Program-made: the position numbers and the translations under genes
Shown here: piece after piece, positions 20,956 to 43,062 of the stretch
How positions within the stretch are numbered: the first letter of the stretch is position 1
How the letters are laid out: each line of letters starts with the position of its first letter
The notes under the pieces: model-generated
What the model saw: the letters and a program-made list of their open reading frames with translations, nothing else
What the model was told of the DNA's origin: nothing
Databases searched by the model: none
IMG/VR virus record: IMGVR_UViG_3300037467_002544
Location: 1 to 46,854 of that record
Strand: one strand, 5' to 3'
Length of the DNA stretch: 46,854 nt
DNA from: a virus
Taxonomy: Duplodnaviria; Caudoviricetes

Positions 20956-20990
20956 ACCCTACGGGCGGAGTCCGATCCGTCAAACGATTT
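20956..20990 (-). promoter_or_regulatory. Sigma70-type promoter, copy 1 of a 35-bp direct repeat
   Basis: AAATCGTTTGACG-N17-TAGGGT; 33/35 identical to 21240-21274. Confidence 0.75.
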
Positions 20991-21239: not shown

Positions 21240-21274
21240 ACCCTACGGGTGGAGTCTGATCCGTCAAACGATTT
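21240..21274 (-). promoter_or_regulatory. Sigma70-type promoter, copy 2 of the direct repeat
   Basis: TTGACG-N17-TAGGGT. Confidence 0.75.
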
Positions 21275-21285
21275 CGCGTATAAGA

Positions 21286-21359
21286 TGGAACTGGCGTGCG
21301 GGCTCGAACCGCAATCCTCGGGTCCACAACCCGATGCTCTTCCTTTGAGCTACACCAGC
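21286..21359 (-). tRNA. tRNA-His(GUG), copy 2
   Basis: GCTGGTG/CGCCAGT acceptor; TCGGG-TTGTGGA-CCCGA anticodon arm; TTCGAGC T-loop; U73 and encoded CCA. Confidence 0.9.
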
Positions 21360-21387
21360 ACGAAATGCACTGCCTCGAATAGAATTT

Positions 21388-21463
21388 TGGTCCCAGCGGG
21401 TGGAATCAAACCACCTCTTCACGGTCCACAGCCATGCGTGCCAGATCATAACACTACACTGGG
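21388..21463 (-). tRNA. tRNA-His(GUG), copy 1
   Basis: CCCAGTG/CGCTGGG acceptor; CATGG-CTGTGGA-CCGTG anticodon arm; GGTGG-TTTGATT-CCACC T arm; A73 and encoded CCA. Confidence 0.85.
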
Positions 21464-21504
21464 AAAAATGAGAAACCCCGGGAAGCGATGCCTCACCGGG
21501 GTTC
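21464..21504 (-). terminator. Attenuator terminator directly upstream of tRNA-His
   Basis: GAACCCCGG...CCGGGGUUU stem followed by CUCAUUUUU. Confidence 0.8.
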
Positions 21505-21529
21505 AAGAAGTCGCCGACACACGCGCGCG

Positions 21530-21589
21530 TCAGACCTTGCCCGAACCCTCGGAGCAATGATGATGGATATGGTGCGAGTGCGTGAACAT
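21530..21589 (-). CDS. His-rich leader peptide MFTHSHHIHHHCSEGSGKV (HisL-like attenuator peptide)
   Basis: ATG TTC ACG CAC TCG CAC CAT ATC CAT CAT CAT TGC TCC GAG GGT TCG GGC AAG GTC TGA; 6 His among codons 4-11. Confidence 0.85.
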   Translation of the reverse strand: MFTHSHHIHHHCSEGSGKV

Positions 21590-21594
21590 GCTTT

Positions 21595-21626
21595 TATTTA
21601 TATCCTCTCAGCAGGGAAGGTGTCAA
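21595..21626 (-). promoter_or_regulatory. Composite promoter for the His leader/tRNA-His unit
   Basis: TTGACA-N18-TATAAATA, 5 nt before the leader ATG. Confidence 0.8.
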
Positions 21627-21651: not shown

Positions 21652-23823
21652 TCATGCCTCCATGGCATCATCATCATCCCACGAATCATCGTTGCCCCAC
21701 ATCACCTCGGCACGAAGCAACTCATCGTAGATCTGGATGATCGCTTTTTTCTCTTGAATGCTCAGCTTGTCTGACCAAGAATAACCGAGCAATCGACGAG
21801 AAAGCTGCCTTGCTTCATAGTGAGCACCGGCAACTTCAGAGCCAATATCGGTCCGATTACGACGAGCCCGAAAGCCACCAATCCTCCGGGCGCGATCTGT
21901 GCGATCAGACGTCAGCTTCTTCAGTTCGGCCGCTTCATCGATGTACTTGGCCTCGCGAGTCGTTTTCGGAGGACCGTCTGGCCAAAGATCCTTAGCCTTC
22001 TCGATGATGCTTGCATAAGACAGGACTGCGGCGTCGGGATACTTTTGTACATATGCATCGCGATACTCGGCTTCTTTTGTGCTGGCCTTCTTGGCCTCGT
22101 CATCCGAGAATGTCCCAGCCTGAATGTCGTCAACAATGAATTGCTTAACTTCGTCCCCCTGATCTCCGCTCTCGACTTCCTTATCATCGATCACGTCTCC
22201 ACGAATCTTCAGGGTCTGTTCGGAACCACCCTCGTTCGTGATCAACGTCTGAAACAGTGCGAGGCCAGCGTTGTCATCTGGAGTTATGTAATCGCCGTAG
22301 TTAACATTACCAAAACGGGTTGCGGTTCGCATGATCCGCTGAATGAACGCCGCCTTAGTGCGCACAGTTGAGAGATCGAGTGCAACCTTCAGATGAGAAA
22401 CATCAAGGCCAACACTGGCCATCTGCTTCACAATGAGAACATCAAAAGAACCCTTTCCGAACTCAGTGATGGTCTTTTCTGCGGCTTCTTCATCGGCCGA
22501 CGTCGCAATCCCGAAGCGAATTTCGGGAAAACGGTTTCTCAAGATGCCGGCAACACGATTGATGTGTTGAGCATCGTAATCCTCAAAATCAGAAACATCA
22601 TTGCCGACGAAAATCAGGCCCGAAATATGTTTCTGGTCGAAGTGTTGCTTCTTATATTGGATGTGCTCAACCAACAGACGGATGCCCTCCTCGATGCACT
22701 GATCAGTCCGCACAACCTGACCTAACGCGCGGCGCGCGTCAGTTTCGGAGTTGATATCGGAGAGATTCTGTCGCGTGCGATCTGAGGCCGTCACGGTGGG
22801 ATCGAAGCTGATGCGATTGATCCGACAAATCACACCTTCATCCCACGCCTCACGGTAGGTGCGCTGATAGTGAGGAGTAAGGATGACATCCTTTACCTGC
22901 TGCTTGTAAACGGTCACCTGCCGGAAACCCTCCTTGCCAGGAACGGGCCGTGTCACGGTGACCTGACTGTCCTTCGCATCGATCTCCTCAACATCGAAGC
23001 CGGGGATGAGCTTTCCATCCGCCCTATAGGGAGTGCCGGTCACGAGGATGATGTATGCGCCGGCCTGTTCGATCTTCTCGATCGTTGTGCCCCATGAGTT
23101 ATCGGACGAGTTCATATGGCTCTCGTCAATGTAAAATGCGGGGGGCTTGCCTGTTCTGCGGATCATCGCACGAACATACTTGACCATGTTGGCGCAGTTC
23201 ATGTTGACCCACTGGATCGTCGCAGCCATGAAGACTTTTGGAGCCTTCATCAAGCGTTCCTGACTTTGCGAGTTCAACCGGGCGGACTCAATATCGTTTT
23301 GAACATGATAGCGCGAGATCATTTGCTTAACGTCGGCGCGCCTTACCATCTGATTGTACAGAAAGGCGCTCGGGACCATCACGACAGAAGTCGAGACCAG
23401 ACCCTGATAATAAAGCTCGTATGCAGATAGGCGAATGACGTCACTCTTACCGTAGCGAGTAGGAAGGACAATGGCCGTCTTTTTTTCACCGTTACGAATG
23501 CGAGAAATGATACAATTGAGCGCGCCGCGCTGCCCAATGCGCATTCCCGAAACATCTGAGAACTTTGCTTCGTTACCTTCTTCGTAGATTTGCTTGTTGG
23601 TCATTATATCCGTTTCTTGCTTTTCGTATTTGTCTGATTTCTGTAAATTGCAAGCCGGGCACAGGGCTTGCATATTCTGAATTTTGGTTTCTTTCACAAT
23701 GCGATATGGAACAATGTGATCAGCGTGCCAGCCTTCTTCAAGTTCAGTTTGACAGATTGCGCATCTGCCATCTTGCTGTAACCACAACGCTGTTCGATCA
23801 CGCTTAGAAGTTAAACGCCTCAT
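21652..23823 (-). CDS. HNH endonuclease fused to SF2 helicase (restriction ResIII-like)
   Basis: CAIC..WHADHIVPY..NMQALC.ACN..K; LPTRYGKS, IDESH, TGTPYRAD, SVGLD, FIQRIMR. Confidence 0.85.
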   Translation of the reverse strand: MRRLTSKRDRTALWLQQDGRCAICQTELEEGWHADHIVPYRIVKETKIQNMQALCPACNLQKSDKYEKQETDIMTNKQIYEEGNEAKFSDVSGMRIGQRGALNCIISRIRNGEKKTAIVLPTRYGKSDVIRLSAYELYYQGLVSTSVVMVPSAFLYNQMVRRADVKQMISRYHVQNDIESARLNSQSQERLMKAPKVFMAATIQWVNMNCANMVKYVRAMIRRTGKPPAFYIDESHMNSSDNSWGTTIEKIEQAGAYIILVTGTPYRADGKLIPGFDVEEIDAKDSQVTVTRPVPGKEGFRQVTVYKQQVKDVILTPHYQRTYREAWDEGVICRINRISFDPTVTASDRTRQNLSDINSETDARRALGQVVRTDQCIEEGIRLLVEHIQYKKQHFDQKHISGLIFVGNDVSDFEDYDAQHINRVAGILRNRFPEIRFGIATSADEEAAEKTITEFGKGSFDVLIVKQMASVGLDVSHLKVALDLSTVRTKAAFIQRIMRTATRFGNVNYGDYITPDDNAGLALFQTLITNEGGSEQTLKIRGDVIDDKEVESGDQGDEVKQFIVDDIQAGTFSDDEAKKASTKEAEYRDAYVQKYPDAAVLSYASIIEKAKDLWPDGPPKTTREAKYIDEAAELKKLTSDRTDRARRIGGFRARRNRTDIGSEVAGAHYEARQLSRRLLGYSWSDKLSIQEKKAIIQIYDELLRAEVMWGNDDSWDDDDAMEA

Positions 23824-25322: not shown

Positions 25323-25397
25323 TGGTGCCGTCGGTGAGGATCGAACTCACGGTCTCACCATTACCAATGGTGTGCTTTACCACTAAGCTACGACGGC
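25323..25397 (-). tRNA. tRNA-Thr(GGU)
   Basis: GCCGTCG/CGACGGC acceptor; CACCA-TTGGTAA-TGGTG; TTCGATC; encoded CCA; TTGCAC-N18-TATGTT promoter upstream. Confidence 0.95.
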
Positions 25398-26316: not shown

Positions 26317-28212
26317 TCAGATGCTGATCTGATTGCCGATCTCGACTGTGCGGGTCGTCGGCAGGTGGAAATGCTCGGCCGCGTCTACTGCCGTGGAGAC
26401 GAGGCCGATGAACAGGCTGGTCTGCCAGCAGGGCATTCGGGGAGTGGTCGCAGGGCGGACCTGCCGGCGCGAGAGGAAGAAGCTCGTCTTCATGGTGTCG
26501 AACCGCCAGCCGGTCTTGCGGCAGTCCGGCATCGCCTTGGGCACGTTCGGCTCCTCCATGAAGCCAAAGCGCATGGTCACCCGCAGGAAGCCGTCGCCGA
26601 GCGCCTCGACCGTGGCGCGCTCGCTCTTGGGCACCCGAGGAACGTCCATCGTCTTCACGGTGAGCAGCACGTTGTGCTCGTGAAGCACATGGTTGTGCTT
26701 CAGGTTGTGCAGGAGGGCCGCCGGGACCTCGGTGGGAACCGGCGTGAGGAACACGGCCGTCCCGGGCACCCGCGTGACGCTCGAACCGACAAGCAGCTTC
26801 CGGAAATGCTCGATCGGGGTCTGGTGCTTGAGTTCCTTGGCGAGCAGGATCCGCAGGCCCTTCACCCAGGTCGTCATCACGAGGACGAGACCGCCGCCGA
26901 GCAGCAGTGGGAGCCAGCCGCCTTCCAGTACCTTGAGGGTATTTGCGCCCAGGAAGACGAGATCGAGTGCCAGGAGCGGCGCCACCATGAGGCCGGCGAG
27001 CACCACCGGCCATTGCCAGACCTTCCAGGCGACCAGGAAGATCAGGACGGCGGTGATCACCATGGTCCCGGTCACGGCGATCCCATAGGCCGCGGCGAGG
27101 TTCTCGGAGGTCCGAAACAGAGCGACCAGGAGCAGCACCGCGACGAGCAACAGGGCGTTCGCCCGGGGGATGAAGATCTGCCCTTTCTCGGTTTCGCTGG
27201 TCCGGCGGATCAGCATCCGGGGAATGAGTTTCAGTTGGATCGCCTGTTGGGTGAGCGAGAACGCCCCCGAGATGACGGCTTGGCTGGCGATCACCGTGGC
27301 GACCGTGGCGAGGCCAACCATCGGGAGAAGCGCCCAGGCCGGATAGAGCAGGAAGAACGGGTTCTCGGCAGCCTCAGGGGTGCCCAGGATCAGCGAACCC
27401 TGCCCGAGGTAGCAGAGGATGAGGGAGGGAAACACAAGGGCCGTCCAGGCGGCCTGAATAGGCTTGCGACCAAAGTGGCCCATGTCTGCGTAGAGGGCCT
27501 CTGCGCCGGTCACACTGAGAAAGACCGCACCGAGCGCAAGGATGCCAGCCCAGCCGTGGGTGAGCAGGAAGCTGACCCCATGAACGGGATTGAGCGCCTG
27601 GAGGATCTGTGGGTGCTCGATCACATGCGGCAGGCCGCCGAGGCCAAGCGCGAAGAACCATACGAGCATGATCGGCCCGAAGAACCGGGCGATCGCCGCG
27701 GTGCCGCTGGCCTGGACCGCGAACAGGCCGACCAGCACGACGAGGCTGATCGGGATCACACCGTGCTCGAACGCGGGAGAGACAAGCTTCAGGCCCTCGA
27801 CGGCGGAGAGCACCGACACGGCCGGCGTGATCACACTGTCGCCGTAGAACAGGGCCGCACCGGCCATCCCGAGCAGGGCTACGAACGGCCAGGGCGAGGG
27901 GAGGGCACGCTGAACCAGGGCGGTGAGGCTGAGCGTGCCACCCTCGCCGTTGTTGTCGGCGCGCATGATCAGCATGACGTACTTGAGGGTCACGATGATC
28001 ATCAACGTCCAGATGATCAGCGAGACGACGCCGATCGTGATCGTCGGGGTGGCCGCGGCTCCATCGGAGGCTGCGCGCAGGCTCTCCTTCAGCGCGTAGA
28101 GCGGGCTCGTGCCGATGTCGCCGTAGACGACGCCGAGCGATCCGAGAGCGAGAGCGAGAAACGAGCCATGATGGGCAGCCGAGGGCGGCTGCGCGGCAGT
28201 GGGCAACGACAT
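26317..28212 (-). CDS. kup: Potassium transporter Kup (KUP/HAK/KT family)
   Basis: LGVVYGDIGTSPLYA, RADNNGEGG, GDSVITPAVSVLSAVEG, TGAEALYADMGHFG, IASQAVISG.FS, AYGIAVTG, RVPGTAVFLT, LLHNLKHN.VLHE, FGFME.P. Confidence 0.97.
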   Translation of the reverse strand: MSLPTAAQPPSAAHHGSFLALALGSLGVVYGDIGTSPLYALKESLRAASDGAAATPTITIGVVSLIIWTLMIIVTLKYVMLIMRADNNGEGGTLSLTALVQRALPSPWPFVALLGMAGAALFYGDSVITPAVSVLSAVEGLKLVSPAFEHGVIPISLVVLVGLFAVQASGTAAIARFFGPIMLVWFFALGLGGLPHVIEHPQILQALNPVHGVSFLLTHGWAGILALGAVFLSVTGAEALYADMGHFGRKPIQAAWTALVFPSLILCYLGQGSLILGTPEAAENPFFLLYPAWALLPMVGLATVATVIASQAVISGAFSLTQQAIQLKLIPRMLIRRTSETEKGQIFIPRANALLLVAVLLLVALFRTSENLAAAYGIAVTGTMVITAVLIFLVAWKVWQWPVVLAGLMVAPLLALDLVFLGANTLKVLEGGWLPLLLGGGLVLVMTTWVKGLRILLAKELKHQTPIEHFRKLLVGSSVTRVPGTAVFLTPVPTEVPAALLHNLKHNHVLHEHNVLLTVKTMDVPRVPKSERATVEALGDGFLRVTMRFGFMEEPNVPKAMPDCRKTGWRFDTMKTSFFLSRRQVRPATTPRMPCWQTSLFIGLVSTAVDAAEHFHLPTTRTVEIGNQISI

Positions 28213-29255: not shown

Positions 29256-30272
29256 TCAAACAGTTTTTTCGCTTTCGTCGATGTTGGGGCTGCCGGTGTG
29301 CGAGCGCGCGTACACGGACTTGATCTGATTGGGGTGAAAAGCGATCCAGACGTCGTGCTCGCCGAAGGTCGCGACGATCTGGCCACCCTCGTGGCGGATG
29401 CCGTCGAAGCCAGCGCGCTGAAGCCCCAGGTTCGTCTGGTTCTTCGCTTCTCCCTCGAAGTGGCTGGGCTCACCCACGCGGAGGAGCCCCTTGACAGTCG
29501 TCCAAAGGTCGTGGCCGGTCACGGCCCCTTGTTGGAGTCTGCTCTCACCAAACTCGATGAATTTTGCCTGCTTTTCTGGGTCAATCAGAAGCAAAGGAAT
29601 GAGGCGTTTAACCTGATCCCGATGGAAGAGGCCGCTCATATCGAACGGGTTCTTGATCGATAGATAGACCGGAATGACAACTGGAGTTGTTGTGCGCCGC
29701 TTCTCGACTTTCAGCTTCTTGATAAACCAATCCGGCGCGTCAGCGACGAGCCATTTTGCCATTGCCTCCGGACCTTCATTCCATGCCTTGCAGCCGGCGT
29801 TGTAGGAGCGACGGGTGCCGATATCGCGGTTCGCATCGTCGATATAGCCGTTCGACAGGAAGAGGCGCTTTGCATAAGCCATTTGCTTCTTGGTTAGCGG
29901 CGGGACCTCGAACTTGGCGCGCTGAAACGCGTAGCCGGCCTGCTGGAAACGGGCTGAGGCGTCGATTGCCTCCCAAGGATCGCTCGGGTCCAGGGCGACC
30001 TTGCCGGTGCTCCCGGCAACATCGGGGCTGTCCGTGAAGTAGAAGCCCGGCCCATACAGGCCGTTCTGGTCGACCTTGCTCACATCAAACGCCCTGATGT
30101 CGCCCGCTCCAGTGCCATGGTACATCCGCTTGGGTGTTCCGTCCTCGTTGACGCATTTCGAGCCAGCGAACCACTGGGCGAAGCTGGAGACCCGAGAGTC
30201 CTCACTGAGGCTCTGGAGGAACGTCGGTGACGGGCGATCGGTCTGCTCGATCAGGTTGAGGAAATCACGCAT
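29256..30272 (-). CDS. ADP-ribosyltransferase-like (ART-PolyVal-type) putative internal virion protein
   Basis: F..WF..SK.V..DG.P..MYHGT, YGPGFYFTD, VIPVYLSIKNPFD, GFDGI, IAF.PNQIKS; leader MRDFLNLIE; TAAATA 5 nt upstream. Confidence 0.8.
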   Translation of the reverse strand: MRDFLNLIEQTDRPSPTFLQSLSEDSRVSSFAQWFAGSKCVNEDGTPKRMYHGTGAGDIRAFDVSKVDQNGLYGPGFYFTDSPDVAGSTGKVALDPSDPWEAIDASARFQQAGYAFQRAKFEVPPLTKKQMAYAKRLFLSNGYIDDANRDIGTRRSYNAGCKAWNEGPEAMAKWLVADAPDWFIKKLKVEKRRTTTPVVIPVYLSIKNPFDMSGLFHRDQVKRLIPLLLIDPEKQAKFIEFGESRLQQGAVTGHDLWTTVKGLLRVGEPSHFEGEAKNQTNLGLQRAGFDGIRHEGGQIVATFGEHDVWIAFHPNQIKSVYARSHTGSPNIDESEKTV

Positions 30273-30837: not shown

Positions 30838-31107
30838 TCAGCCGAACCTCATCTTGAGTCGAAATGCCTGATCTTCGTTTTCCATGTACCACTGGTGGTG
30901 CCAGCCAAAACTTTCTGGACGAGGGAACTTCAACTCCAGCGGATCCGTCTCGGGGAACTGTTCTTGAATCCACTCCCGAACCTCAGAAGCATCGTGGTTC
31001 TGTGTGATGACTACAAAGCCGGCAGCGGCCCGCCGGCCGCGCAGCTTGTGGCGCTTTTCCGCCTCATCGGGCGAGTAGTATACCACGGTGCGGCGCGGTT
31101 CGCTCAT
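30838..31107 (-). CDS. Paralog-family small protein
   Basis: WIQEQFP...WYMENEDQAFRLKMRFG. Confidence 0.75.
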   Translation of the reverse strand: MSEPRRTVVYYSPDEAEKRHKLRGRRAAAGFVVITQNHDASEVREWIQEQFPETDPLELKFPRPESFGWHHQWYMENEDQAFRLKMRFG

Positions 31108-31991
31108 CCCCGGTACCTCGCCAGCACGACATCAAGGTCCGCCACAAGCTGCGCGGCCGACTGATCGCGAACGATCACTGCGTCGAGCGAGCCATAGTGG
31201 TGCTCCAGGCACTCCAGGAGCAGCGCCTTGATCCGAGGCTCGTCCGGGCCATGCGGGAGCGTGCTCTCTGCGTACACGCTCTCCAACGCGCGCTGCTTGT
31301 CTGTGAAATGCTGCTCGATCTGCTCGATCGTCCACTCGCCCCGGCGGATCGACTTCAGCATCTCGCGGTTGCGCTCCAGGTCGAGATCGTGCTCGATCAG
31401 GATCATCTCAATTTCGGACAAGAGTCTTACAATATGGTAGGCGAACTTGGTCGAGTAGCCATAAGTCTCGATGTCAGCCGCTCGGGCTTCATTGCTGGAA
31501 TTCGACTTCGAACGGATCTTTCCCATCTGAGCATACGCGTAGCCCTTGAACTTATGCCACGCGCCTTTGTGCAGGAACATCTTCCTATTCTCGCGCACAC
31601 GCTGGCCCACCTGGGTCGAGTGAATGACACAGCGCTGTGGAACGAAGAGGCTGTCAATACAGTTGGGGTTGTTCTCCATGCAAAGCTGAAAGTATTTCAC
31701 GATCGAATAGACCGAGAAATCGTACTCCTGCTTGGAGTCCGGGGCCTTCAAATGATGCTCCTGCCAGACCTCGAACCGGGGAGGCTGAGTTCCGAACCCG
31801 GGAATGACACCAGCTAGATGCGGAAACACGGTTTCCTTGGGCGGGATCGCAAACCCATAGAGATCCATGTCCGACGTATCGGAGGACACGCCGTAGGCAA
31901 CACTGCCCATGATTGTGAGGAAATGACAGTTGTTCGCCAACCACTTTGGTGGGTGCGCAACACCCGCCTTCTCAAGCTTATGAATGATCAC
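31104..31991 (-). CDS. Pol-beta superfamily nucleotidyltransferase (YcgL/RlaP-like)
   Basis: GSVAYG....SDMDLYG, NNPN.IDSLF, FKGYA.AQ, K.AYH.VRL, L.SIRRG, S.LP..PD; probable GTG start. Confidence 0.85.
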   Translation of the reverse strand: MIIHKLEKAGVAHPPKWLANNCHFLTIMGSVAYGVSSDTSDMDLYGFAIPPKETVFPHLAGVIPGFGTQPPRFEVWQEHHLKAPDSKQEYDFSVYSIVKYFQLCMENNPNCIDSLFVPQRCVIHSTQVGQRVRENRKMFLHKGAWHKFKGYAYAQMGKIRSKSNSSNEARAADIETYGYSTKFAYHIVRLLSEIEMILIEHDLDLERNREMLKSIRRGEWTIEQIEQHFTDKQRALESVYAESTLPHGPDEPRIKALLLECLEHHYGSLDAVIVRDQSAAQLVADLDVVLARYRG

Positions 31992-32052
31992 GACTGAAAC
32001 CGCTAAACAGGCAATGACCCTGTTTACGCGACCAGGGGCAGGAAAGGCAAAA

Positions 32053-32646
32053 ATGAAATTCGACACGAGTCCAACAATGCCCTATGGCTGGAGCGTTCCT
32101 GGTGACGAATTGCCAATGCCCCGCGTTTTTCCGACCGAAAATCACGCCGATCTCATCAGCCTCTCCCAGATCCTGATGTGCTGGACGATCAGCCCTACAA
32201 TGTGTGGCGAGCGCGAGTGTCAGCTTCACAAGACTGGCTTCACCGGCCTGAGCTTCGCGCAACTTTCCCCCTATGAGGCTGCCCGCATCCGAGCGTTCGC
32301 GGCCGGCCGGGGGAAGACGGTCTGCCGGATCGATCGGATCGAGGCCGGCATGGACACCGACTACGCATTCAAGCGCCGGGTGCGCTGTCTCGCCGGAACG
32401 ATCTGGCTGAAGCATGATGAGGACATTGCTGCGTTCAAGACGCTGCTCAATGAAATCCCACCGCGGTCTTGTGAGTTCCTGATCGAGAACAGCCGGTTCA
32501 CCCCGGATCTTCGCGAGCGCCTCAAAGGGAAGAACTGGACACAGATCCGCTCCGACCGTGAGGAGGAGCAGGCCACCTCGATCTTCTCGTGCGAAAGCTG
32601 CAAAGAAGCTGTTTACGTCAGAATGATGTGTTCCGCCGATGCTTGA
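32053..32646 (+). CDS. Hypothetical protein (possible remote two-domain paralog-family member)
   Basis: IWLKHDEDIAAFK and C-terminal EAVYVRMM. Confidence 0.65.
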   Translation: MKFDTSPTMPYGWSVPGDELPMPRVFPTENHADLISLSQILMCWTISPTMCGERECQLHKTGFTGLSFAQLSPYEAARIRAFAAGRGKTVCRIDRIEAGMDTDYAFKRRVRCLAGTIWLKHDEDIAAFKTLLNEIPPRSCEFLIENSRFTPDLRERLKGKNWTQIRSDREEEQATSIFSCESCKEAVYVRMMCSADA

Positions 32647-34478: not shown

Positions 34479-34629
34479 GATGCACCCCCAGGCGCAAATA
34501 CGAACATGCTGGAATGACCTGTCTGAAATCGGACAAGCGCCTTGAAAAGCGACGGCGCGACCAACGACCTAGCAGGAACTCACGGACCGGGCAATCATCT
34601 TGTCGTAAGCACGATCCCGGGGGTTCAAA

Positions 34630-34953
34630 TCAGGACCAGAGCATCTTCATGAGGACCGCGGCATTCTCGCTCGTGGTCCTCCAGAGGACATAGATCCTGT
34701 CATTCGGACCAACTTCCCAGGAAACACTTCCCACTTCCAGGCAGTCGGAGGGGTAAGCATCTCGAAACCACACCAGAACCGACGAGTAGATTTCATCCAG
34801 GTGGCGCATACCCTTGTTGTGAGATGTTGCAACTTCAACGGCGTCAGGTGGCAGAACTTGGTCGTTTGACGAATCGATAACGCCCTTATTGCAGCGGTGA
34901 AACACCTTAGAACGCTGAAACTCGCGCCGAAGGTATGGAAGATCGAAACTCAT
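34630..34953 (-). CDS. Paralog-family small protein
   Basis: WFRDAYP...WRTTSENAAVLMKMLWS; ATGA-coupled. Confidence 0.8.
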   Translation of the reverse strand: MSFDLPYLRREFQRSKVFHRCNKGVIDSSNDQVLPPDAVEVATSHNKGMRHLDEIYSSVLVWFRDAYPSDCLEVGSVSWEVGPNDRIYVLWRTTSENAAVLMKMLWS

Positions 34954-35282
34954 GACCACTTCATCCGCATCATCAGCGTTGCATGTTTGTTGTCTGTCCG
35001 CCAGAGAATGTACGCGCGGCCGTCTTGCCTACTAAACTGCCAAGCTACCGATCCCGTCTCCAGCCGGCTTTGTGGGAACGTCTCGGCGAACCATGTGAGA
35101 ATTTCAGGGCGGACAACATTCGAGATGTCCCAGGGCCTGTCGAGATCATGGACAGTCACTACTGGCAGGCAATGCGTAGAAATCAAGCCGTCAAATTCTC
35201 GACCAATAATGCCGTTTCGCACAAAAATAACGCTCCCCGAGTTAATTTCCTCGGTGTGCAAATAGTCCATATCGGCTGTCAC
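34950..35282 (-). CDS. Paralog-family small protein
   Basis: WFAETFP...WRTDNKHATLMMRMKWS; GTGA-coupled. Confidence 0.8.
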   Translation of the reverse strand: MTADMDYLHTEEINSGSVIFVRNGIIGREFDGLISTHCLPVVTVHDLDRPWDISNVVRPEILTWFAETFPQSRLETGSVAWQFSRQDGRAYILWRTDNKHATLMMRMKWS

Positions 35283-35608
35283 GACCACCTCATCCGCATC
35301 ATCACGGCAGCGTTCTCATTGTCTGTTCGCCAAAGAATATAAGATCGCGCATCCCACTCGAACTGCCAAGCCACCCCGCCTGTCTCCAGCCGACTCTGTG
35401 GGTACTCATTCGCAAACCAATGGAGGATGTCATACCGTACCGTGGTAACAAGAACTCCCACATCCATGGGTTCATGAGAGGTCACCACAGGGAACATGGA
35501 AGACCGAAAACGGAAACACTGATCCTCCCCAACACTGCCGTTCCGAGCAAATAGGACGAACTCTGACCTATTTTCCTCATCGAGAAGGTAGCCCATGTTG
35601 GCTGTCAT
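35279..35608 (-). CDS. Paralog-family small protein
   Basis: WFANEYP...WRTDNENAAVMMRMRWS; ATGA-coupled. Confidence 0.8.
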   Translation of the reverse strand: MTANMGYLLDEENRSEFVLFARNGSVGEDQCFRFRSSMFPVVTSHEPMDVGVLVTTVRYDILHWFANEYPQSRLETGGVAWQFEWDARSYILWRTDNENAAVMMRMRWS

Positions 35609-35955
35609 GACCACCTCATGCACATCATCACGGCAGCGACTTCGCTGCTGACCAGCCAGTAGTGATAGATATGTGTGTCATCCCAGGCCCAACTCAATGA
35701 TCCATTGATCAGACCGTCCTCCGGGTACTCAGACGCAAACCAGTCACGCACTTTGTACATGATGCTCGCTGCCTTCATGTCCAAAGCTATGCCAACAGAG
35801 TCGTCCGGTATCATGTGCGCCGTGACTACCTCGACGTAATCCGCTGGCTGTTCAAATAAAAGCGCATTCCTGCTGGTCAGCACATGCCCGCTACGAATAT
35901 AGTAGGCTTGCGATTGGAGATAAAGGTGACGAAGACGTTCATAAGGGTCGCTCAT
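35605..35955 (-). CDS. Paralog-family small protein
   Basis: WFASEYP...WLVSSEVAAVMMCMRWS. Confidence 0.8.
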   Translation of the reverse strand: MSDPYERLRHLYLQSQAYYIRSGHVLTSRNALLFEQPADYVEVVTAHMIPDDSVGIALDMKAASIMYKVRDWFASEYPEDGLINGSLSWAWDDTHIYHYWLVSSEVAAVMMCMRWS

Positions 35956-35980
35956 GAGAGGATTTCCATCGAGCCAGTTC

Positions 35981-36301
35981 TCACGAAAACATCAGCTTCA
36001 TCATCACGGGAGCATCCGGTTCGTCTGTCCGCCAGACCAGAGAAAAGCGCCGCCCGCCCAGAAGACAAAAATTGAGCGCATCCGTCTCCAGGTGCGATCC
36101 CGGATAGGTCTCCAGGAACCAGTCCATTATCCTCCGACGCAGGCAGATCACTGACTCGTCCTGCCTGCACTCGGCCTCCATGATGAACTCGATCAGGCCC
36201 TCGGTCGGCCAGTGCCGGCGGGACTTCTCAATCAGGATGACGCGGCCACGGCGGGCCGCGCTGATCAGGGGATCGCGTCGGTGCTGCTTCGTTTTGCGCA
36301 T
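35981..36301 (-). CDS. Paralog-family small protein
   Basis: WFLETYP...WRTDEPDAPVMMKLMFS. Confidence 0.8.
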   Translation of the reverse strand: MRKTKQHRRDPLISAARRGRVILIEKSRRHWPTEGLIEFIMEAECRQDESVICLRRRIMDWFLETYPGSHLETDALNFCLLGGRRFSLVWRTDEPDAPVMMKLMFS

Positions 36302-36339
36302 GCCCCGTTATACCAGGGCGGCTCGGGTGACCGCATTAT

Positions 36340-36717
36340 TCACGACCACCTCATGCGCATCATCACGGCCGCGCTCTCGTTGTCGGTCTTCCAGTAGCGG
36401 CGGAAACTCTTCGGCCACTCAATGCGCCAAGACATATGCCCGGTGAGGAGGCACGAGTGCGGGTACTCTTCGGCGAACCAGCAGAGAATGTCATCAGCCT
36501 TGGCCTTCGCCGATTTCCAGTCCAAATCGGTCTCGACATCGAACAGGGCCAGCCGGTCTCCATTCCAGAGGAACGGATGGTCCAGCGCGGCCGAACCCCC
36601 TGGGCCTCGAACCCGCAGAAGGTATTTCTGCCCATGGCAAACCGCCTGGATGACCTGCTGCTCGCAGAGCAGCGGCACAGATCCATCATCGTCAATCGCA
36701 TCGGGGCACGTCAGCAT
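36340..36717 (-). CDS. Paralog-family small protein
   Basis: MLTC..FLWNG..WFAEEYP...WKTDNESAAVMMRMRWS. Confidence 0.8.
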   Translation of the reverse strand: MLTCPDAIDDDGSVPLLCEQQVIQAVCHGQKYLLRVRGPGGSAALDHPFLWNGDRLALFDVETDLDWKSAKAKADDILCWFAEEYPHSCLLTGHMSWRIEWPKSFRRYWKTDNESAAVMMRMRWS

Positions 36718-36756
36718 GCGTCAGATCTACCATGCCGGGTAGACGGAGCGCATTAT

Positions 36757-37056
36757 TCAGGACCAGCGCATACGCATCATCACTGCGGCGCTCGGATTGT
36801 CGGTTCGCCAGAACGTTTGAATATGATAGACATCGTTGATGAACTTGTAGGAACCAATGCGGGTTTCCAGATATGAGTCTGGATAGTTCTCACTGAACCA
36901 ACCAAGCACTAAGCGTCGTATGCTACCCATCGTCCCACCAGACGCACGCTCGTTTATTATTTCGACCTCGACCAGCGCGGCTGGACGCTTGACGAAACGT
37001 TGTAACTCCATACGGATTTCACCGTTCCGGTAATAGTTGACATAGGAAGACGTCAT
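36757..37056 (-). CDS. Paralog-family small protein
   Basis: WFSENYP...WRTDNPSAAVMMRMRWS. Confidence 0.8.
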   Translation of the reverse strand: MTSSYVNYYRNGEIRMELQRFVKRPAALVEVEIINERASGGTMGSIRRLVLGWFSENYPDSYLETRIGSYKFINDVYHIQTFWRTDNPSAAVMMRMRWS

Positions 37057-37068
37057 GTTTGTGATCCT

Positions 37069-37437
37069 TTAAGCCCAGCGCATGCGCATGATCAGCGCGG
37101 CGTGCTCATTATCGGTTAACCATAGCGTTGGTAATTGGCTGTAATCGTGAAAACTAAAGTCGCTCCCAGCCAGGATCAAGCACGAGTGCGGATACTCCTC
37201 GGCAAACCAAGTGTGAACATCGACTAAACGCCGGCCATTGTGCGCCGCAAAATAGCTCACGGCAATTTTGACCGAACGCAAGTCAAGAGGTTCGCCGTTC
37301 CAGAAGAACTTCTCGTTCAGCACGTCCTCCGGCTTCAGCCTCCTCGTCCGTAAAGAATACCACACCCTATGGCAGGTCGCATGGATGGTTCTCCGTATGT
37401 TCGCTGTCTCAGGAAGCATGAATGAGCAGGTCAGCAT
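37069..37437 (-). CDS. Paralog-family small protein
   Basis: MLTC..FFWNG..WFAEEYP...WLTDNEHAALIMRMRWA. Confidence 0.8.
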   Translation of the reverse strand: MLTCSFMLPETANIRRTIHATCHRVWYSLRTRRLKPEDVLNEKFFWNGEPLDLRSVKIAVSYFAAHNGRRLVDVHTWFAEEYPHSCLILAGSDFSFHDYSQLPTLWLTDNEHAALIMRMRWA

Positions 37438-37440
37438 GGT

Positions 37441-37809
37441 TCAGGACCACAGCATCCGCACCATCACTGCGGCCTGCTCGTTGTCGGTCATCCACTTGGT
37501 GACAAACACCTGTTCTGGTTTAATAAAGTCTTGATCTATGGCGATTAGACAAGACTCGGGGTAGGTCTCGGCAAACCATTGGTGTAGCTCCGGGAATCGA
37601 TGACCTTCGCTTTCAGCAATCCTCGATTCCGTCTCAAAAAGATTGAGGCGGTCGCCGTTCCAGTGGAACTCGTACCGGTCGTGAAATTCACGTGGACTAT
37701 ACGGAATCGTTATTTCAACTACAGAGCCCTGGCAAATCGCGCATATAAACAGCCTGCTGTCGTATTTTTCAGAGATCGCCGGATCGACGTTGTGGATGCA
37801 GGTCAACAT
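37441..37809 (-). CDS. Paralog-family small protein
   Basis: MLTC..FHWNG..WFAETYP...WMTDNEQAAVMVRMLWS. Confidence 0.8.
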   Translation of the reverse strand: MLTCIHNVDPAISEKYDSRLFICAICQGSVVEITIPYSPREFHDRYEFHWNGDRLNLFETESRIAESEGHRFPELHQWFAETYPESCLIAIDQDFIKPEQVFVTKWMTDNEQAAVMVRMLWS

Positions 37810-37848
37810 GAGTGAGCCCTAGCACGGGTGAGGGTCGGAACGCATTAT

Positions 37849-38229
37849 TCAGGACCAGCGCATGCGCATCATCAGCCCTGCCTGCTCGTTGTCGGTCCAC
37901 CAGTTCCACTGTATCCGTGTCAGGTCGATGTCCTGCCATTGCACGTAGCGCGAAATAAGAAACGATGAAGGATATTCCTCAGCAAACCAGTTCAATATGT
38001 CGGTGCTGAGTTCCGTCCAAGATCCATCCTGTCGATGGTGTACCGTCGTCGCGCATACCAGCTTTAATTCCTCACCGTTCCAGTAAAACGGCCCCGCAGT
38101 AGCTTTTGAAAAGTTGGCCTGACTAACAGATAAACACTGCCTCTGACCGCAGCATGCGGCTTTGATTTCACAGAGTGTCGTGAAAGTAAGCTCTGGCCGG
38201 AACTCGATCTGGTACGGAGATGTGATCAT
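37849..38229 (-). CDS. Paralog-family small protein
   Basis: FYWNG..WFAEEYP...WWTDNEQAGLMMRMRWS. Confidence 0.8.
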   Translation of the reverse strand: MITSPYQIEFRPELTFTTLCEIKAACCGQRQCLSVSQANFSKATAGPFYWNGEELKLVCATTVHHRQDGSWTELSTDILNWFAEEYPSSFLISRYVQWQDIDLTRIQWNWWTDNEQAGLMMRMRWS

Positions 38230-38338
38230 GAACGAGTGTTAGCACGGGCGAGGATTGGGGCGCATTATTCTCGTTTAGAGCTAAAACGAAGACAATTCGC
38301 GCAAACAATATAAATAGTTCGATACTTGAGGATCGAAC

Positions 38339-39001
38339 TTGTTTTATATTGTTTACCGCACAACCAATTTGCTCAATGGAAAAATCTACATCGGGATCCA
38401 CGAAACGAACGATTTGGATGATGGGTACCTCGGTTCTGGAGTTTTGATTCAGAGGGCCCTTGCAAAATATGGCCGGGAGAATTTCTCACGTGAGATCCTG
38501 TTCACGTTCGTCAACCGTGATGCGACGATCGCAAAAGAGGCGGAACTTGTCACTGAAGAATTTGTCGCGCGCGAGGACACGTACAATCTGACAGTCGGAG
38601 GGTACGGTGGCTTTCACTACGTCAATAAAGCCGGCCGTAACATTTATGAAGGCCATGCTGAGATCGCACGCGAGCATCAGAAACTTGCAGTTGCTGCTGC
38701 AAACAGCCGGAGAAGCGATGCAGAGTTCAAAGCTGCGTGGGACCGTGCTGCGAGAGATGGCCTGAGGCGCTACTTCGACGAAGGCGGCCAGAACGGCTTT
38801 GCCGGCAAGAGCCATTCGGAAGAAACAAAAAAGTTGATCGGCTCTATCAACGCTGTTCGTCAACGCGGCTCAGGAAATAGCCAATACGGAACCTGTTGGG
38901 TTCACAACGTTGATCTCAAGGAGAGTCGGAAGGTGCCTGCGCCCGAGCTTGCTACTTGGGAAGCAATAGGATGGAAGAAGGGGAGAAAGATCAAATGGTA
39001 A
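38339..39001 (+). CDS. GIY-YIG (Seg-like) homing endonuclease
   Basis: IVYRTTNLLNGKIYIGIH...YLGSG...KYG.ENF.REIL..YNL..GG; HSEETKKLI; TATAAATA at 38309-38316; TTG start. Confidence 0.9.
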   Translation: MFYIVYRTTNLLNGKIYIGIHETNDLDDGYLGSGVLIQRALAKYGRENFSREILFTFVNRDATIAKEAELVTEEFVAREDTYNLTVGGYGGFHYVNKAGRNIYEGHAEIAREHQKLAVAAANSRRSDAEFKAAWDRAARDGLRRYFDEGGQNGFAGKSHSEETKKLIGSINAVRQRGSGNSQYGTCWVHNVDLKESRKVPAPELATWEAIGWKKGRKIKW

Positions 39002-39004
39002 AAA

Positions 39005-39080
39005 TGGCTCCGGCGGTACGAATTGAACGTACGACATCGATGTTAACAGCATCGCGCTCTGCCAACTGAGCTACGCCGGA
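39005..39080 (-). tRNA. tRNA-Asn(GUU)
   Basis: TCCGGCG/CGCCGGA acceptor; CGATG-CTGTTAA-CATCG; TTCAATT; G73 and encoded CCA. Confidence 0.95.
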
Positions 39081-39133
39081 ATAACCACTGATTTATTTAT
39101 CATCTATACCCATTTTCACCGCACCGTTCAATA

Positions 39134-39493
39134 TTATTCTCCACCAAGCATCAGCAAATGCATCGCCTCAGCCGGGGTCGGTGCGACCCAGTAGGTGCGG
39201 TAACCTCTTGCCACCGTGTCGAAATCGTAGCCCAACAGGACGAGATTGCTATCGGGATGGCTATCGAGATGGCGTTCCGCTAGCCTCCGAACTCTGTTTG
39301 TCATGCGTGATGCAAAACCACCTTTCAAATTTCGATGAAATAGCACCTCAACGAAGGTTCCCTCGCAGCGTGCCTTGGCAAGATCAATGAGCAGCACCTC
39401 CCATTGCAGCAGTTGCCGGCGCTCACCGAGGTAGAAGATTTCACAGCCGCTTTCCTGAGAGCCTGCTCGCGAAAAATACATCTCAAGCCTCAC
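39134..39493 (-). CDS. Divergent paralog-family protein
   Basis: HP...LV.LGY..YWVAPTPAEAMHLLM; close paralog of the next ORF. Confidence 0.75.
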   Translation of the reverse strand: MRLEMYFSRAGSQESGCEIFYLGERRQLLQWEVLLIDLAKARCEGTFVEVLFHRNLKGGFASRMTNRVRRLAERHLDSHPDSNLVLLGYDFDTVARGYRTYWVAPTPAEAMHLLMLGGE

Positions 39494-39884
39494 TCATCAG
39501 GCTCATCTGGACGGCCTGCGCAACCGTGTTGGTCAGCCAGTGATAGGCGTTCAGCTTGGTCCGCTGATCGTACTGGTAGCCCAGGAACACGAGCACGTCG
39601 TCCGGATAGAGGTCATGGAAGGCGCGGGCAAGGCGCGCGCTGTGCTCGTCGCGCTCGCCGATCGGCGGGAACCGCAGATGCCACGCTCGCACTCTGCCCG
39701 GGGGAGGCGAGCTAACCGAGGCCAACGGCGGGGGAGGGCAGGTGACCGCGACGAACGTGCCTTCGCGCTTGGCCCGCTTGACGTCGAGCGCCCAGACCTC
39801 CCAGCGATGGAGTTCCACCCAGGTGTCTTGGAAAACCATATAGCAGCCGGTGAGATCGTTCCGCTGTGTGTTCAAGTAGATCAT
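39483..39884 (-). CDS. Divergent paralog-family protein
   Basis: WEV...D...A..EGTFV; YP..VLVFLGY..HWLTNTVAQAVQMSLM. Confidence 0.75.
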   Translation of the reverse strand: MIYLNTQRNDLTGCYMVFQDTWVELHRWEVWALDVKRAKREGTFVAVTCPPPPLASVSSPPPGRVRAWHLRFPPIGERDEHSARLARAFHDLYPDDVLVFLGYQYDQRTKLNAYHWLTNTVAQAVQMSLMSEA

Positions 39885-39945
39885 TTCAAGTATCGTTGTC
39901 GCAACTGTACAAATCCATAGGGGTATAGTTAAATTCCCGCAATCA

Positions 39946-40218
39946 TCAAATCGCCCACTTCATCATCATCATCTGAGCGACGTTCTCATCACTGACAAGC
40001 CAATTCTGCGCAAGATAGCCGAACTTCCTATGCTCCCATGAGACGTAGCCTAGGTTCACCGATACGGAGGGATAGTGCTCGGCGAGCCACGCGCGCACCG
40101 CAATGATATGGTCTTGGCGATGGCGCAACCAATGGCGGCCATCGTCCGGAAGACGATAGAACGTCTGTGCGAGAGTTAGATGATCTCCCATCGGCATTCT
40201 TCCCAGAAGTGGTTTCAA
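39946..40218 (-). CDS. Paralog-family small protein
   Basis: WLAEHYP...WLVSDENVAQMMMMKWAI; start uncertain. Confidence 0.75.
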   Translation of the reverse strand: MKPLLGRMPMGDHLTLAQTFYRLPDDGRHWLRHRQDHIIAVRAWLAEHYPSVSVNLGYVSWEHRKFGYLAQNWLVSDENVAQMMMMKWAI

Positions 40219-40420
40219 AACGGCGTTATTGATGATCTTACTTTTAACGCCGTGTTGCCCTCATACACGCTCTCCCCCGACGACCTTCGCGCCCAGATAG
40301 TTCTGAAACGCAGACTAACATCTCGTCAAGGTGCACTGCACCACGATCAGCAGGGATTCCGCAGCCATGAACGGATGACCCTGATCCCAGCTATGGGATC
40401 GCGGTTCTGGCTTTCAAAAT

Positions 40421-40672
40421 TCACGTCGCGGTGTCTCGCGACCAGCGCATGGTCAGATAGGTAGCAACCGCTTCTGAGTAGGTCCGCCAAATTGTCTTAC
40501 AGAGATCTATATCAACATATATGCAGTCATCCAGAAGCAGTGTTTCCAATGGGTGGGTCTCACGCTGCCAATCCATGACTTCTTCAATATGGCTGTTGCA
40601 TTGATCGAAGACCGGTGCCCACCAGTGATCATGGTCGGGCCTTGCGAACGTCTCGACAAGGATCTCGGTCAC
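40421..40672 (-). CDS. Paralog-family small protein
   Basis: WQRETHP...WRTYSEAVATYLTMRWS. Confidence 0.75.
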   Translation of the reverse strand: MTEILVETFARPDHDHWWAPVFDQCNSHIEEVMDWQRETHPLETLLLDDCIYVDIDLCKTIWRTYSEAVATYLTMRWSRDTAT

Positions 40673-40902
40673 GGCTGGCTCCAGAGCAGCGTCATCAGTG
40701 TGGCGGCTTTTTCATCGGAGACTTTCCAAGAGAGCTTGCAGACCTCCATGGTGATCCAATTGAGGTCCACAAAGGTTATACTTGCGTCTGGGTAGTTCGT
40801 GGATAACCACGCCTCTACCTTTCGCTGGTGGTCCTGTATGGCTGGAATATAAACTAAGGATAGCTGACTTTCTTCTCGCATGTATGTCGAACAATCAAAC
40901 AT
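40669..40902 (-). CDS. Paralog-family small protein
   Basis: WLSTNYP...WKVSDEKAATLMTLLWS; TAATG-coupled start. Confidence 0.75.
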   Translation of the reverse strand: MFDCSTYMREESQLSLVYIPAIQDHQRKVEAWLSTNYPDASITFVDLNWITMEVCKLSWKVSDEKAATLMTLLWSQP

Positions 40903-41135
40903 TACGATTGGGCCCACTTCAAAGTCATCATTAGCGCGGCATTTTCGTCGGAAATCTCCCATGTAGTTTCGCGGACATCTCCAGTTATCCATCTACCACC
41001 GCGTTGAAACCAAGTGGCGTCGGGATAGTTATCACGGATCCAAGCTGCAACATCTTTGATATGCCTATTGATTGAGGTGCAGTAGATTAATGGTTCGGTG
41101 CTTGGCTCGGAGACGTATGTAAAGCATGTGAACAT
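40902..41135 (-). CDS. Paralog-family small protein
   Basis: WIRDNYP...WEISDENAALMMTLKWA. Confidence 0.75.
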   Translation of the reverse strand: MFTCFTYVSEPSTEPLIYCTSINRHIKDVAAWIRDNYPDATWFQRGGRWITGDVRETTWEISDENAALMMTLKWAQS

Positions 41136-41137
41136 CG

Positions 41138-41386
41138 CTAGGGTGCCCACTTCATGGTCATCATCAGTGCAATGCGTTCGTCATGGATCGTCCACTCGCA
41201 CCATCCGAGACCAAGCTGTTCGTCATAGCCCTGGCAGGGCTCGACGAGGCGCGTTCCCGGGTGGTTCTCGATCAGCCAGCGCATGACTTCGTCGAGGTGC
41301 GCGCGAACGCCCTCGACGATCTTCCAGCGCCGGTAATGCAGGCCGGTGGAAGGGAAGTAGGTGCGCGCGGTCAAAAATTCGGTCAT
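41138..41386 (-). CDS. Paralog-family small protein
   Basis: WLIENHP...WTIHDERIALMMTMKWA; TAATG-coupled. Confidence 0.75.
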   Translation of the reverse strand: MTEFLTARTYFPSTGLHYRRWKIVEGVRAHLDEVMRWLIENHPGTRLVEPCQGYDEQLGLGWCEWTIHDERIALMMTMKWAP

Positions 41387-41685
41387 TACGACCACCGCAG
41401 GGCCATCATCGTGGCCAGGGTGGAGTCATCCACGATCCACTCGACCTTCTGAGTTTCATTCGAGAGCAGATGTTCGGGCGATCGCGTGCAGATGATGGAT
41501 CCATACGGGCGCTCGGCGAGATACCAGAGCCGTATCGCTGTGCGGTACTCGGCAAAGACTTGGTGGCGCCTTATGATGGAGCGAATGCCTCGATAGTGCT
41601 CCGGCACGGTGTAGTAGGTGGTTACGTCAAACCACGGTCTTGGATGAAGCATGGCCCACAATGTCATCAGCACGAAAGCGACCAA
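41386..41685 (-). CDS. Paralog-family small protein
   Basis: WYLAERP...WIVDDSTLATMMALRWS; start uncertain. Confidence 0.75.
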   Translation of the reverse strand: MVAFVLMTLWAMLHPRPWFDVTTYYTVPEHYRGIRSIIRRHQVFAEYRTAIRLWYLAERPYGSIICTRSPEHLLSNETQKVEWIVDDSTLATMMALRWS

Positions 41686-41765
41686 AAAAGAAGCCGGTAC
41701 ATACTGTCTTGCGAAAGCATATACCGGCCAGATGAGGTTTGTTGAAAGTACGTATGGGGGGCGGC

Positions 41766-42009: not shown

Positions 42010-43062
42010 GTTGCCGGAACTCTGCCGGCGAGGTTGCGGGAAGGGTTACCCTTGAGATTACAGGGTTGTGTGACCGGTCTTCTGGAGCGTACGGGCCGGT
42101 TCCCACCGGACCTTCCTCCATCATCCACGTCGTGGACTTGCGCCTCACGTCGTATCCAGTCAGTGCCGCCTTTTTGCTGGTGCTCCAGTCTCCACGGGAT
42201 CCTTGGGGGATCGTCCGCTTCATCGACCAGCCAGCCGAGTGGCATGTCTCGTGACGTCGAATGCTATTCGACGGCTGTCTACCCACCGCCCCTTCGGGGA
42301 GCGCTCAGGCTTGCGGGCCCTATGAGTGTCTTGCCATCAACGACCCAAACCCTTGGGAGGTCGAGATCGGCCAGATTGCCCTTCCGGGGTCCTGGCGTTA
42401 GGCACCTTTCACATTCGACCGGGACAGGCTTTCCATTTTTAAGATGATCAAGCCAGATCTGTAGATTGTTCCATCAGAGACGTGCTGTCCCGCCGCTCCA
42501 TGCGTTTCCGCACGGAATACGACACGCCTCGTTCCCCTCGCGGTGCGCGCTACTAGGAGTGACATTTGGACGACCCCGGCATCTCTGCCGAAACCACCCT
42601 GAGTCATGCCGGACGCTCTTGCCTGCGGGGCTCGAACTGGACCGACTATCCGTTACCATCCGCTTCGTGCCGGTGTTGCATGTCCAGACCGCAGGGTGCA
42701 ACGCCCGCTATGACGAACGTGCCTCCGACACGGCCGAAGCCGTGCCAGGGCAGTGAGCCCGCCACTCCCCAGCCAAGGGGAGCCTGAACCCGGCCGTTCC
42801 GCTTAGCTCCGTATAAGCGCCGAAGCGCCCGATACCTACGAAGCACCTCCTTTGGGGAGGTCGGCTCGGACCTGCATAGATGAACCGCCTTGTGAGCGGC
42901 GCAGGGTTGTGGAGTCCCTGCTTTGGGCCGGTTGCCCGGCTTATCCTAACGACGCTATGCCGCCAAACTCTGACGATCTTAACAATCCAGCGACGTGGTG
43001 GCGAATTGTTTTTGATCGTTTACGCTTCCGAGGAACCGTCGTTTCCGTCGGCGTCCTCATCA
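42010..43062 (-). ncRNA. Large (~1 kb) structured noncoding RNA, GOLLD-like
   Basis: No credible ORF; dense hairpins with minus-strand UUCG/GNRA tetraloops; TTGCGC-N18-TATACA promoter at about 43070-43098; boundaries approximate. Confidence 0.7.

Follow-up and report, generated by a model that had tools for sequence, protein, structure and literature searches.

A histidine-codon leader ahead of two phage tRNA-His genes: a candidate ribosome-speed attenuator within a set of codon-matched tRNA leaders in related jumbo phages

Why should a phage place a short open reading frame (ORF) crowded with histidine codons, followed by a terminator-like hairpin, directly upstream of a pair of tRNA-His genes? 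This arrangement is found on the minus strand of a viral DNA of 46,854 nucleotides (hereafter the window, meaning the whole stretch analysed), and the original prediction read it as a ribosome-mediated attenuator of the hisL/trpL type acting on tRNA-His, a reading that has since gained support from an ortholog in a related phage (G015) and from the matching of leader codons to downstream tRNAs in further relatives. We consider it probable, at roughly 0.83, that the unit is a transcription attenuator responding to ribosome speed, which gates the two tRNA-His genes by the supply of charged tRNA-His. The anatomy, conservation and codon matching behind this reading come from the sequence, and the switch geometry from folding; translation, termination and induction are what we infer.

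With its 46.9 kb, the window covers part of the genome of a jumbo phage resembling Atu_ph07 and Phosso; the completeness of the record is estimated at 12%. Its capsid protein shares 76.5% identity with that of Sinorhizobium phage Phosso and 67% with that of Agrobacterium phage Atu_ph07, and the nearest relative found, G015, has a capsid protein 88% identical to it. The host is likely alphaproteobacterial, because the nearest bacterial relatives of the Kup transporter of the window, among the matches listed (54–57%), belong mostly to Beijerinckiaceae, Xanthobacter and Caulobacterales, and because the second tRNA-His has a G1.U72 acceptor end without G-1. Window DNA is present in soil and rhizosphere metagenome runs, and no leader variants were found in contigs of four DNA runs covering parts of the window. 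The minus strand also carries a GOLLD RNA (Rfam RF02032, 153.9 bits, 42049–42530), a full-length, phage-borne Kup potassium transporter gene (26317–28212), genes for an ART-PolyVal domain protein (29256–30272), an RlaP-family nucleotidyltransferase (31104–32066) and an HNH-helicase fusion (21652–23823), and, at ~34600–41700, some 15 short ORFs in a row, mostly of 80–125 aa and with similar C-termini (e.g., AVMMRMRWS), which probably form a paralog array.

Is the short frame likely to be transcribed and read? A TTGACA-N18 promoter had been claimed ahead of it, and both hexamers and the 18-nt spacer are indeed in place (Table 1), though this promoter is absent from the consensus scanner output for the window. 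The first hexamer of the -10 box is TATAAA, i.e., TATAAT without its final T, and the whole box equals the T4 late-promoter consensus. Two copies of it occur in the window against 0.06 expected, and the ATAAATA motif occurs seven times against 0.81 expected, lying 14–160 nt upstream of each of the three window tRNA units, among other sites; the -10 box of the His leader doubles as this motif of the phage's own. A -35 box with ATAAATA likewise precedes all six leaderless sites in the G015 DNA examined (~423 of 608 kb). Since the box is T4-late-like and the phages encode a late sigma factor, the unit may be transcribed by both the host polymerase and the late polymerase: homologs of the late sigma factor were found in 5/5 genomes tested, as were Thg1 homologs (5/5), and, according to passages of its description, Atu_ph07 encodes a late sigma factor as well as a tRNA-His guanylyltransferase (PMC6102473).

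The leader itself was found as predicted, with 19 codons and six His among codons 4–11 (codons 4, 6, 7, 9, 10 and 11, spanning 21580–21557). At the phage His frequency, the chance of at least six His in 18 codons is P = 2.2e-6, and only two of the 465 short ATG ORFs of the window have at least five His, of which the second lies opposite an Asp run on the other strand. The leader is also overlapped by an antisense ORF of 80 codons, but this was rejected as a source of the His run because stops close the matching antisense frame of G015. Judging from the spacing between promoter and ATG, the leader mRNA is likely leaderless; the same short distance from -10 box to ATG recurs in related phages, and leaderless mRNAs are described as common and well translated in Caulobacter in parts of PMC4117421.

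Table 1. Positions of the elements of the His unit and its surroundings in the window
Feature	Position	Strand	Basis or remark
-35 hexamer TTGACA, predicted promoter	21621..21626	-	sequence; TTGACA begins 21626
-10 box TATAAATA	21595..21602	-	18-nt spacer after TTGACA; begins 21602
Leader ORF, 19 codons, MFTHSHHIHHHCSEGSGKV	21530..21589	-	ATG 21589, 7 nt past -10 hexamer
Protector- or pause-like 1:2 hairpin, predicted, ~-10 kcal/mol	21536..21557	-	folding
Antiterminator 5' strand, codons 13-18	21536..21552	-	sequence + folding
Antiterminator apical stem over stop codon	21514..21533	-	folding
Switch strand: antiterminator partner or terminator 5' arm (21504-21496)	21496..21510	-	folding
Intrinsic terminator, predicted, -22.6 kcal/mol	21464..21504	-	folding; last base adjoins tRNA 1
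tRNA-His(GUG) 1	21388..21463	-	ARAGORN + Rfam, 44.6 bits
tRNA-His(GUG) 2	21286..21359	-	ARAGORN + Rfam, 60.4 bits
Promoter-like repeat for downstream genes	21240..21268	-	outside switch

Two helices compete for the RNA that follows the His run. The complementarity noticed earlier between leader codons 13–17 and the terminator 5' arm is present, as 12 bp with one bulged A (21552–21540 with 21507–21496), and the antiterminator and terminator are mutually exclusive; in the fold, the antiterminator is lengthened by three further pairs and a 7-bp apical stem. This leader/terminator-arm duplex reaches -17.8 kcal/mol, a value equalled by 2 of 1000 shuffles, and the whole-region fold is no better than its shuffles (z -1.06). 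The antiterminator of G015 has the same three tiers, and CGCGCG follows the leader stop in both phages. According to folding, a further 5' hairpin can mask the antiterminator strand on ribosome-free RNA; its helix differs in G015.

The terminator was predicted at 21504–21464, where the hairpin is stable, but its tail (UUUCUCAUUUUU) has an interrupted, imperfect U-tract and the consensus scanner makes no call there. Could the leader sense the ribosome, with the hairpin affecting how the precursor folds, its access to RNase P, its stability or the loading of Rho instead of causing intrinsic termination? The broken U-tract and a tail reaching the base before tRNA 1 would suit such an output, which we nevertheless regard as very unlikely, since relatives have clean U-tracts and several of their hairpins stand 100–900 nt ahead of the first tRNA or ahead of a protein gene. 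The Gly/Glu/Asp leaders of G005, G006 and G009 (L365:11970-12217, L371, L357), as well as the short leaders for Thr and Arg in G005, end in hairpins without clear U-tracts, and their output step may be different.

If the hairpin does terminate transcription, how would the ribosome choose between the two helices? The nascent RNA was modelled with a ribosome walking along the leader, using footprints of 9 nt and 12 nt. Before the terminator 3' arm emerges, it is predicted to fold into a 22-pair antiterminator of -33 kcal/mol. With the 9-nt footprint, freeing the terminator arm costs 9.9–15 kcal/mol while the ribosome is on codons 1–11, 5.4 at codon 12 and at most 1.5 at codons 13–15, and the predicted switch point falls directly after codon 11, the final His; with the 12-nt footprint, the cost already falls a codon sooner (5.4 at codon 11 in the window), and the final His of G015 lies beyond the switch point with either footprint. 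At equilibrium, the terminator wins in the full-length RNA in all four ribosome states, by 3.3–18.5 kcal/mol, the margin being smallest with the ribosome at His codon 9, and the switch must therefore be kinetic and dependent on folding order. Folding with a masked ribosome footprint, the check proposed originally, reveals the switch in the nascent RNA and is unable to reveal it at equilibrium. In the model, a stall at the control codons frees strand II and passage of the ribosome covers it.

The attenuator may accordingly be pictured as follows. A ribosome would load on the leaderless transcript and, while it occupies codons 1–11, the codon 13–18 strand is predicted to capture the emerging terminator 5' arm; once past the His run, it would cover this strand and leave the terminator free to form. 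When His-tRNA is ample, the ribosome would clear the His run and transcription would end at ~21465, and when His-tRNA is uncharged, cleaved or overdrawn, the ribosome would stall and RNA polymerase would read through, RNase P and 3' trimming then releasing new tRNA-His from the read-through transcript.

Would the same device report any failure of leader translation (antibiotics, ribosome damage, host shut-off), or be effectively on during infection? A stall at any of codons 1–11 would turn it on, and ribosome-free nascent RNA still favours the antiterminator, with a cost of 5.6 in the window and 10.7 in G015. Yet a general sensor has no need of codon content that matches each downstream tRNA block, and 5' protector helices are able to form first in the window and G015 units; this alternative seems even less credible than an output other than termination, and a sensor of charged tRNA-His remains the preferred reading.

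Conservation of the unit was sought in several ways. The His-only unit of G015 has the same promoter layout, a leader (MKNFSHQHSHHTSGLRPTVMR), then a terminator, two tRNAs and a short HisRS; its first tRNA is an atypical tRNA-His-like molecule with G-1:C73, missed by ARAGORN, and its second a tRNA-His with G1.U72. Compared with the window, one extra pair is found in both helices (C, G and C in strands 2, 3 and 4) and one terminator pair is flipped from G-C to C-G. Helix covariation had been put forward as a check of the attenuator, and these changes, read by eye from two sequences (window and G015), are compensatory in both helices. Over four pattern scans, G015 supplied the one His-only ortholog among the matches listed: a His run before tRNA-His was matched at no fewer than 120 viral loci (at least 120; two with tRNA-His, none with a leader), a stricter viral pattern at 21 (six with tRNA-His, no leader), a metagenome pattern at at least 117 (three with tRNA-His, no leader), and a promoter-plus-His pattern at 106, where G015 was found again as the sole His-leader match; chance hits filled the two broadest of these scans. 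When the locus was compared by blastn with 50,697 phage records, only short matches came back, and the annotated ones were tRNAs; in Phosso and Atu_ph07, the tRNA-His genes lack an upstream leader. Fifteen of 401 alphaproteobacterial genomes matched one loose His-pair-before-tRNA-His pattern, with leader plus terminator at 0 of 11 real tRNA-His loci; an ORF with seven His before a bacterial tRNA-His (L686) was rejected as a leader, being antisense to another long ORF.

A chance arrangement, a decayed remnant or a functionless host hisS or his-operon attenuator carried along is the least plausible of the readings considered, for although the imperfect U-tract, the atypical tRNA 1 and the lack of a HisRS-like gene within the 46.9-kb fragment (record ~12% complete) would suit it, G015 holds an ortholog with compensatory changes, both tRNA types recur elsewhere, no Rfam His_leader match was found, and none of the 11 alphaproteobacterial tRNA-His loci inspected shows a leader with a terminator.

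The complete 517-kb relative G001, found through the clamp-loader protein neighbouring the His locus, has two tRNA-His in a His/Tyr/Ser/Cys block with a Ser/Tyr/His/Cys-rich leader ahead; hairpins of attenuator type are present as well, and so is a short gene resembling HisRS (PF13393). Searching with the short HisRS-like protein gave 26 loci, five of which have a His-containing leader and a terminator before a tRNA block, and searching by alignment with the short HisRS yielded a single further locus, without tRNA-His. This HisRS-like protein of ~200 aa comprises the catalytic core only (L298:4001-4507, L310:3897-4510, L123 from 1769), and its gene adjoins a G-1:C73 tRNA-His in many jumbo phages; the two may form a phage-own pair orthogonal to an alphaproteobacterial host.

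Do the codons of such leaders follow the tRNAs behind them? Micro-ORFs rich in cognate codons had been proposed as something to look for before phage tRNA genes, and in six leader-bearing relatives (G001, G005, G006, G009, G015 and G023) leader composition follows the downstream tRNA set: Glu-rich leaders precede three tRNA-Glu, Arg/Leu/Lys/Trp leaders 9–16 such tRNAs, Asn leaders two tRNA-Asn and Thr leaders three tRNA-Thr, and there are Ser/Tyr/Cys/His leaders as well. A leader ending AGA CGC AGG CGG precedes tRNA-Arg(UCU) and (CCU), and mixed tRNA blocks are preceded by long mixed leaders. A rule-based test covered 89 tRNA clusters in nine genomes. A promoter-like site together with a short ORF was present at 30 of them; after removal of one cluster (18 amino acids), 29 remained for scoring. 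The leader-tRNA match score reached 82.4, the mean under permutation being 18.8, and 0 of 5000 permutations came up to it, although the clusters are not independent, given the kinship of the phages and the homology of some operon classes. For the 25 clusters of leader-bearing phages the score was 80.7 (permuted 17.1), and for the four clusters of Phosso, Atu_ph07 and G010 it was 1.6 (permuted 1.3), i.e., no signal. Within single genomes, the permutations scoring as high, out of 5000, numbered 9 for G015 (six clusters), 6 for G005 (six), 37 for G009 (five), 220 for G006 (four) and 857 for G001 (three), values near the floor for such counts.

Of the 57 clusters in leader-bearing genomes, 32 do not satisfy the rule used to select clusters for this test. 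In the ~423 of 608 kb of G015, all six sites combining a -35 box, ATAAATA and a near ATG are short matched leaders. Twenty of 21 hand-picked units have the same predicted ribosome-position switch, with a duplex p <=0.05 in 13, and their cognate codons amount to 242/352 before the switch, a figure inflated by selection, and 41/197 after it. No such leader was found in the regions examined of G008, G013, G014, G024 and G026, phages in which a single large array contains most of the tRNAs. On a capsid tree of 14 rows, which omits Atu_ph07 and G016 (no capsid protein extracted for either) and G006 (none in record), the leaders cluster and need two changes (3 of 500 shuffles as low), and five leader-bearing phages group with support of 91/97, under the starred threshold; the leaders may or may not share a single origin. 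The His element appears to belong to a series of putative tRNA attenuators spread genome-wide in this phage group. Two side observations were made: tRNAs with a CUA (amber) anticodon occur in G001, Phosso, G015 and G005 (L161, L172, L343, L364), and at L396 (G034) and L456 the stop of a leaderless 12-codon ORF, MQHPLHHTHHNT, overlaps the ribosome-binding site of a 270-aa protein, vWA-like by eye, for which it is a possible His sensor.

What would the His switch release? Two tRNA-His(GUG) genes were said to follow the terminator directly, and ARAGORN and Rfam agree on both. The first is atypical, with C1:G72, A73, no encoded G-1 and a U at the usual C56; an acceptor end with C1:G72 and A73 is known from bacterial tRNA-Pro. 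The same acceptor type occurs in G034 (L568:1486-1561, minus strand), where no short HisRS homolog was found, and because it recurs, tRNA 1 is not simply decayed. The second has G1.U72 without G-1, the alphaproteobacterial type, and U73, and its type is found in G005 (L299). For the Caulobacter HisRS, the anticodon and U72 weigh most, with effects of 91-fold for U72C and 3-fold for A73C according to parts of PMC3064791. As U72 is kept, tRNA 2 is probably chargeable; tRNA 1, which lacks U72, may be a poor substrate for charging by the host HisRS.

The proposal that these tRNAs are the only output may or may not hold: a promoter-like repeat does lie downstream, but no terminator was seen after the second tRNA-His. 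The 26-nt promoter-like element is duplicated (21243–21268 and 20959–20984, minus strand) ahead of two orphan genes (64 aa and 393 aa) with no Pfam or PHROG match, and a search for relatives of the protein downstream of the tRNA-His genes found none. The other window tRNAs, tRNA-Thr(GGU) (25323–25397) and tRNA-Asn(GUU) (39005–39080), both on the minus strand, have no matched leader and an ATAAATA upstream of each.

What purpose might such a loop serve? Replenishment of the tRNA is the role that suits it best, for its product can lift the signal solely where the tRNA itself is in short supply. Loss or overdraw of the tRNA is the more likely purpose, rather than a lack of histidine, since extra tRNA helps little if histidine is missing, and this agrees with the rescue of infection by phage tRNAs from retron-Eco7, PrrC and PARIS; host defence and heavy late-gene demand both fit. 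We would put at even odds a broader view, in which soil jumbo phages of 400–600 kb would carry a tRNA surveillance array: tRNA blocks would stand behind test strips of their own codons, a lost tRNA would be detected and the matching block transcribed, and the His unit would be one sensor of an array answering host tRNA-cleaving defences on demand. Why phages carry tRNAs, whether to compensate for codon usage or to replace host tRNAs that have been depleted, has been a matter of dispute for more than 50 years (passages of PMC10264068), and a sensor on each tRNA block makes it testable, by asking which shortage activates the block, and when. If true, leader-peptide attenuation, so far described for biosynthetic and synthetase genes, would also act on tRNA genes, where the product feeds back directly, and would provide compact, codon-specific sensors of charged tRNA for finding host defences that target tRNAs.

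Which known systems does this resemble? Ribosome-mediated attenuators are described for trp, leu and thr, for ilvGMEDA and ilvBN, and for pheA in parts of PMC1183508. With the hisL class of E. coli and Salmonella, the His unit shares a short cognate-codon ORF and, by prediction, a II:III antiterminator opposed to a III:IV terminator and a choice decided by ribosome position; it differs in being phage-encoded and likely leaderless, and in targeting tRNAs instead of biosynthetic enzymes. Neither the Rfam His_leader (RF00514) nor the T-box riboswitch models match the window at gathering score or up to E 10. In pheM-pheST, a cognate-codon leader controls synthetase genes. His leader peptides precede hisS paralogs and hisZ in bacilli, as reported in sections of PMC2965389. 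Both kinds of leader are alike in governing the tRNA-charging machinery, and the G001 and G015 units hold a short HisRS-like gene; here, in contrast, a tRNA follows the switch, and the product is the sensed molecule. Mycobacteria have leaderless polycysteine short-ORF attenuators, with several independent units per genome forming a 'ribulon' (portions of bioRxiv 10.1101/834739), and share with these phages multiple units in one genome and sensor ORFs that, in the phages, are probably leaderless; theirs, as described there, control translation of the gene that follows, by way of its ribosome-binding site, whereas the next gene here is a tRNA, and as the output is non-coding, it must be transcription or processing that is regulated.

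Phage tRNAs are also known from counter-defence, where tRNA-Tyr of T5 and SP15 counters retron-Eco7 and tRNA-Lys counters PrrC (parts of PMC11555353), T5 tRNAs counter the PARIS nuclease AriB (parts of PMC12409363), and tRNA-His is among the probable, possibly minor, AriB cleavage products (passages of PMC11555353, PMC12409363 and PMC10264068). The stem 'attenuat' is absent from the main text of these three papers, and no description of a leader-peptide attenuator before tRNA genes was found in the literature searched, mostly outside subscription journals and supplements. The likeness lies in phage tRNAs substituting for depleted host tRNAs, and the difference in that those systems, as far as these texts describe them, depend on a strong promoter or on resistant variants. 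The hisL/trpL-like mechanism is thus already known, and what appears to be new is the use of tRNA genes as its targets.
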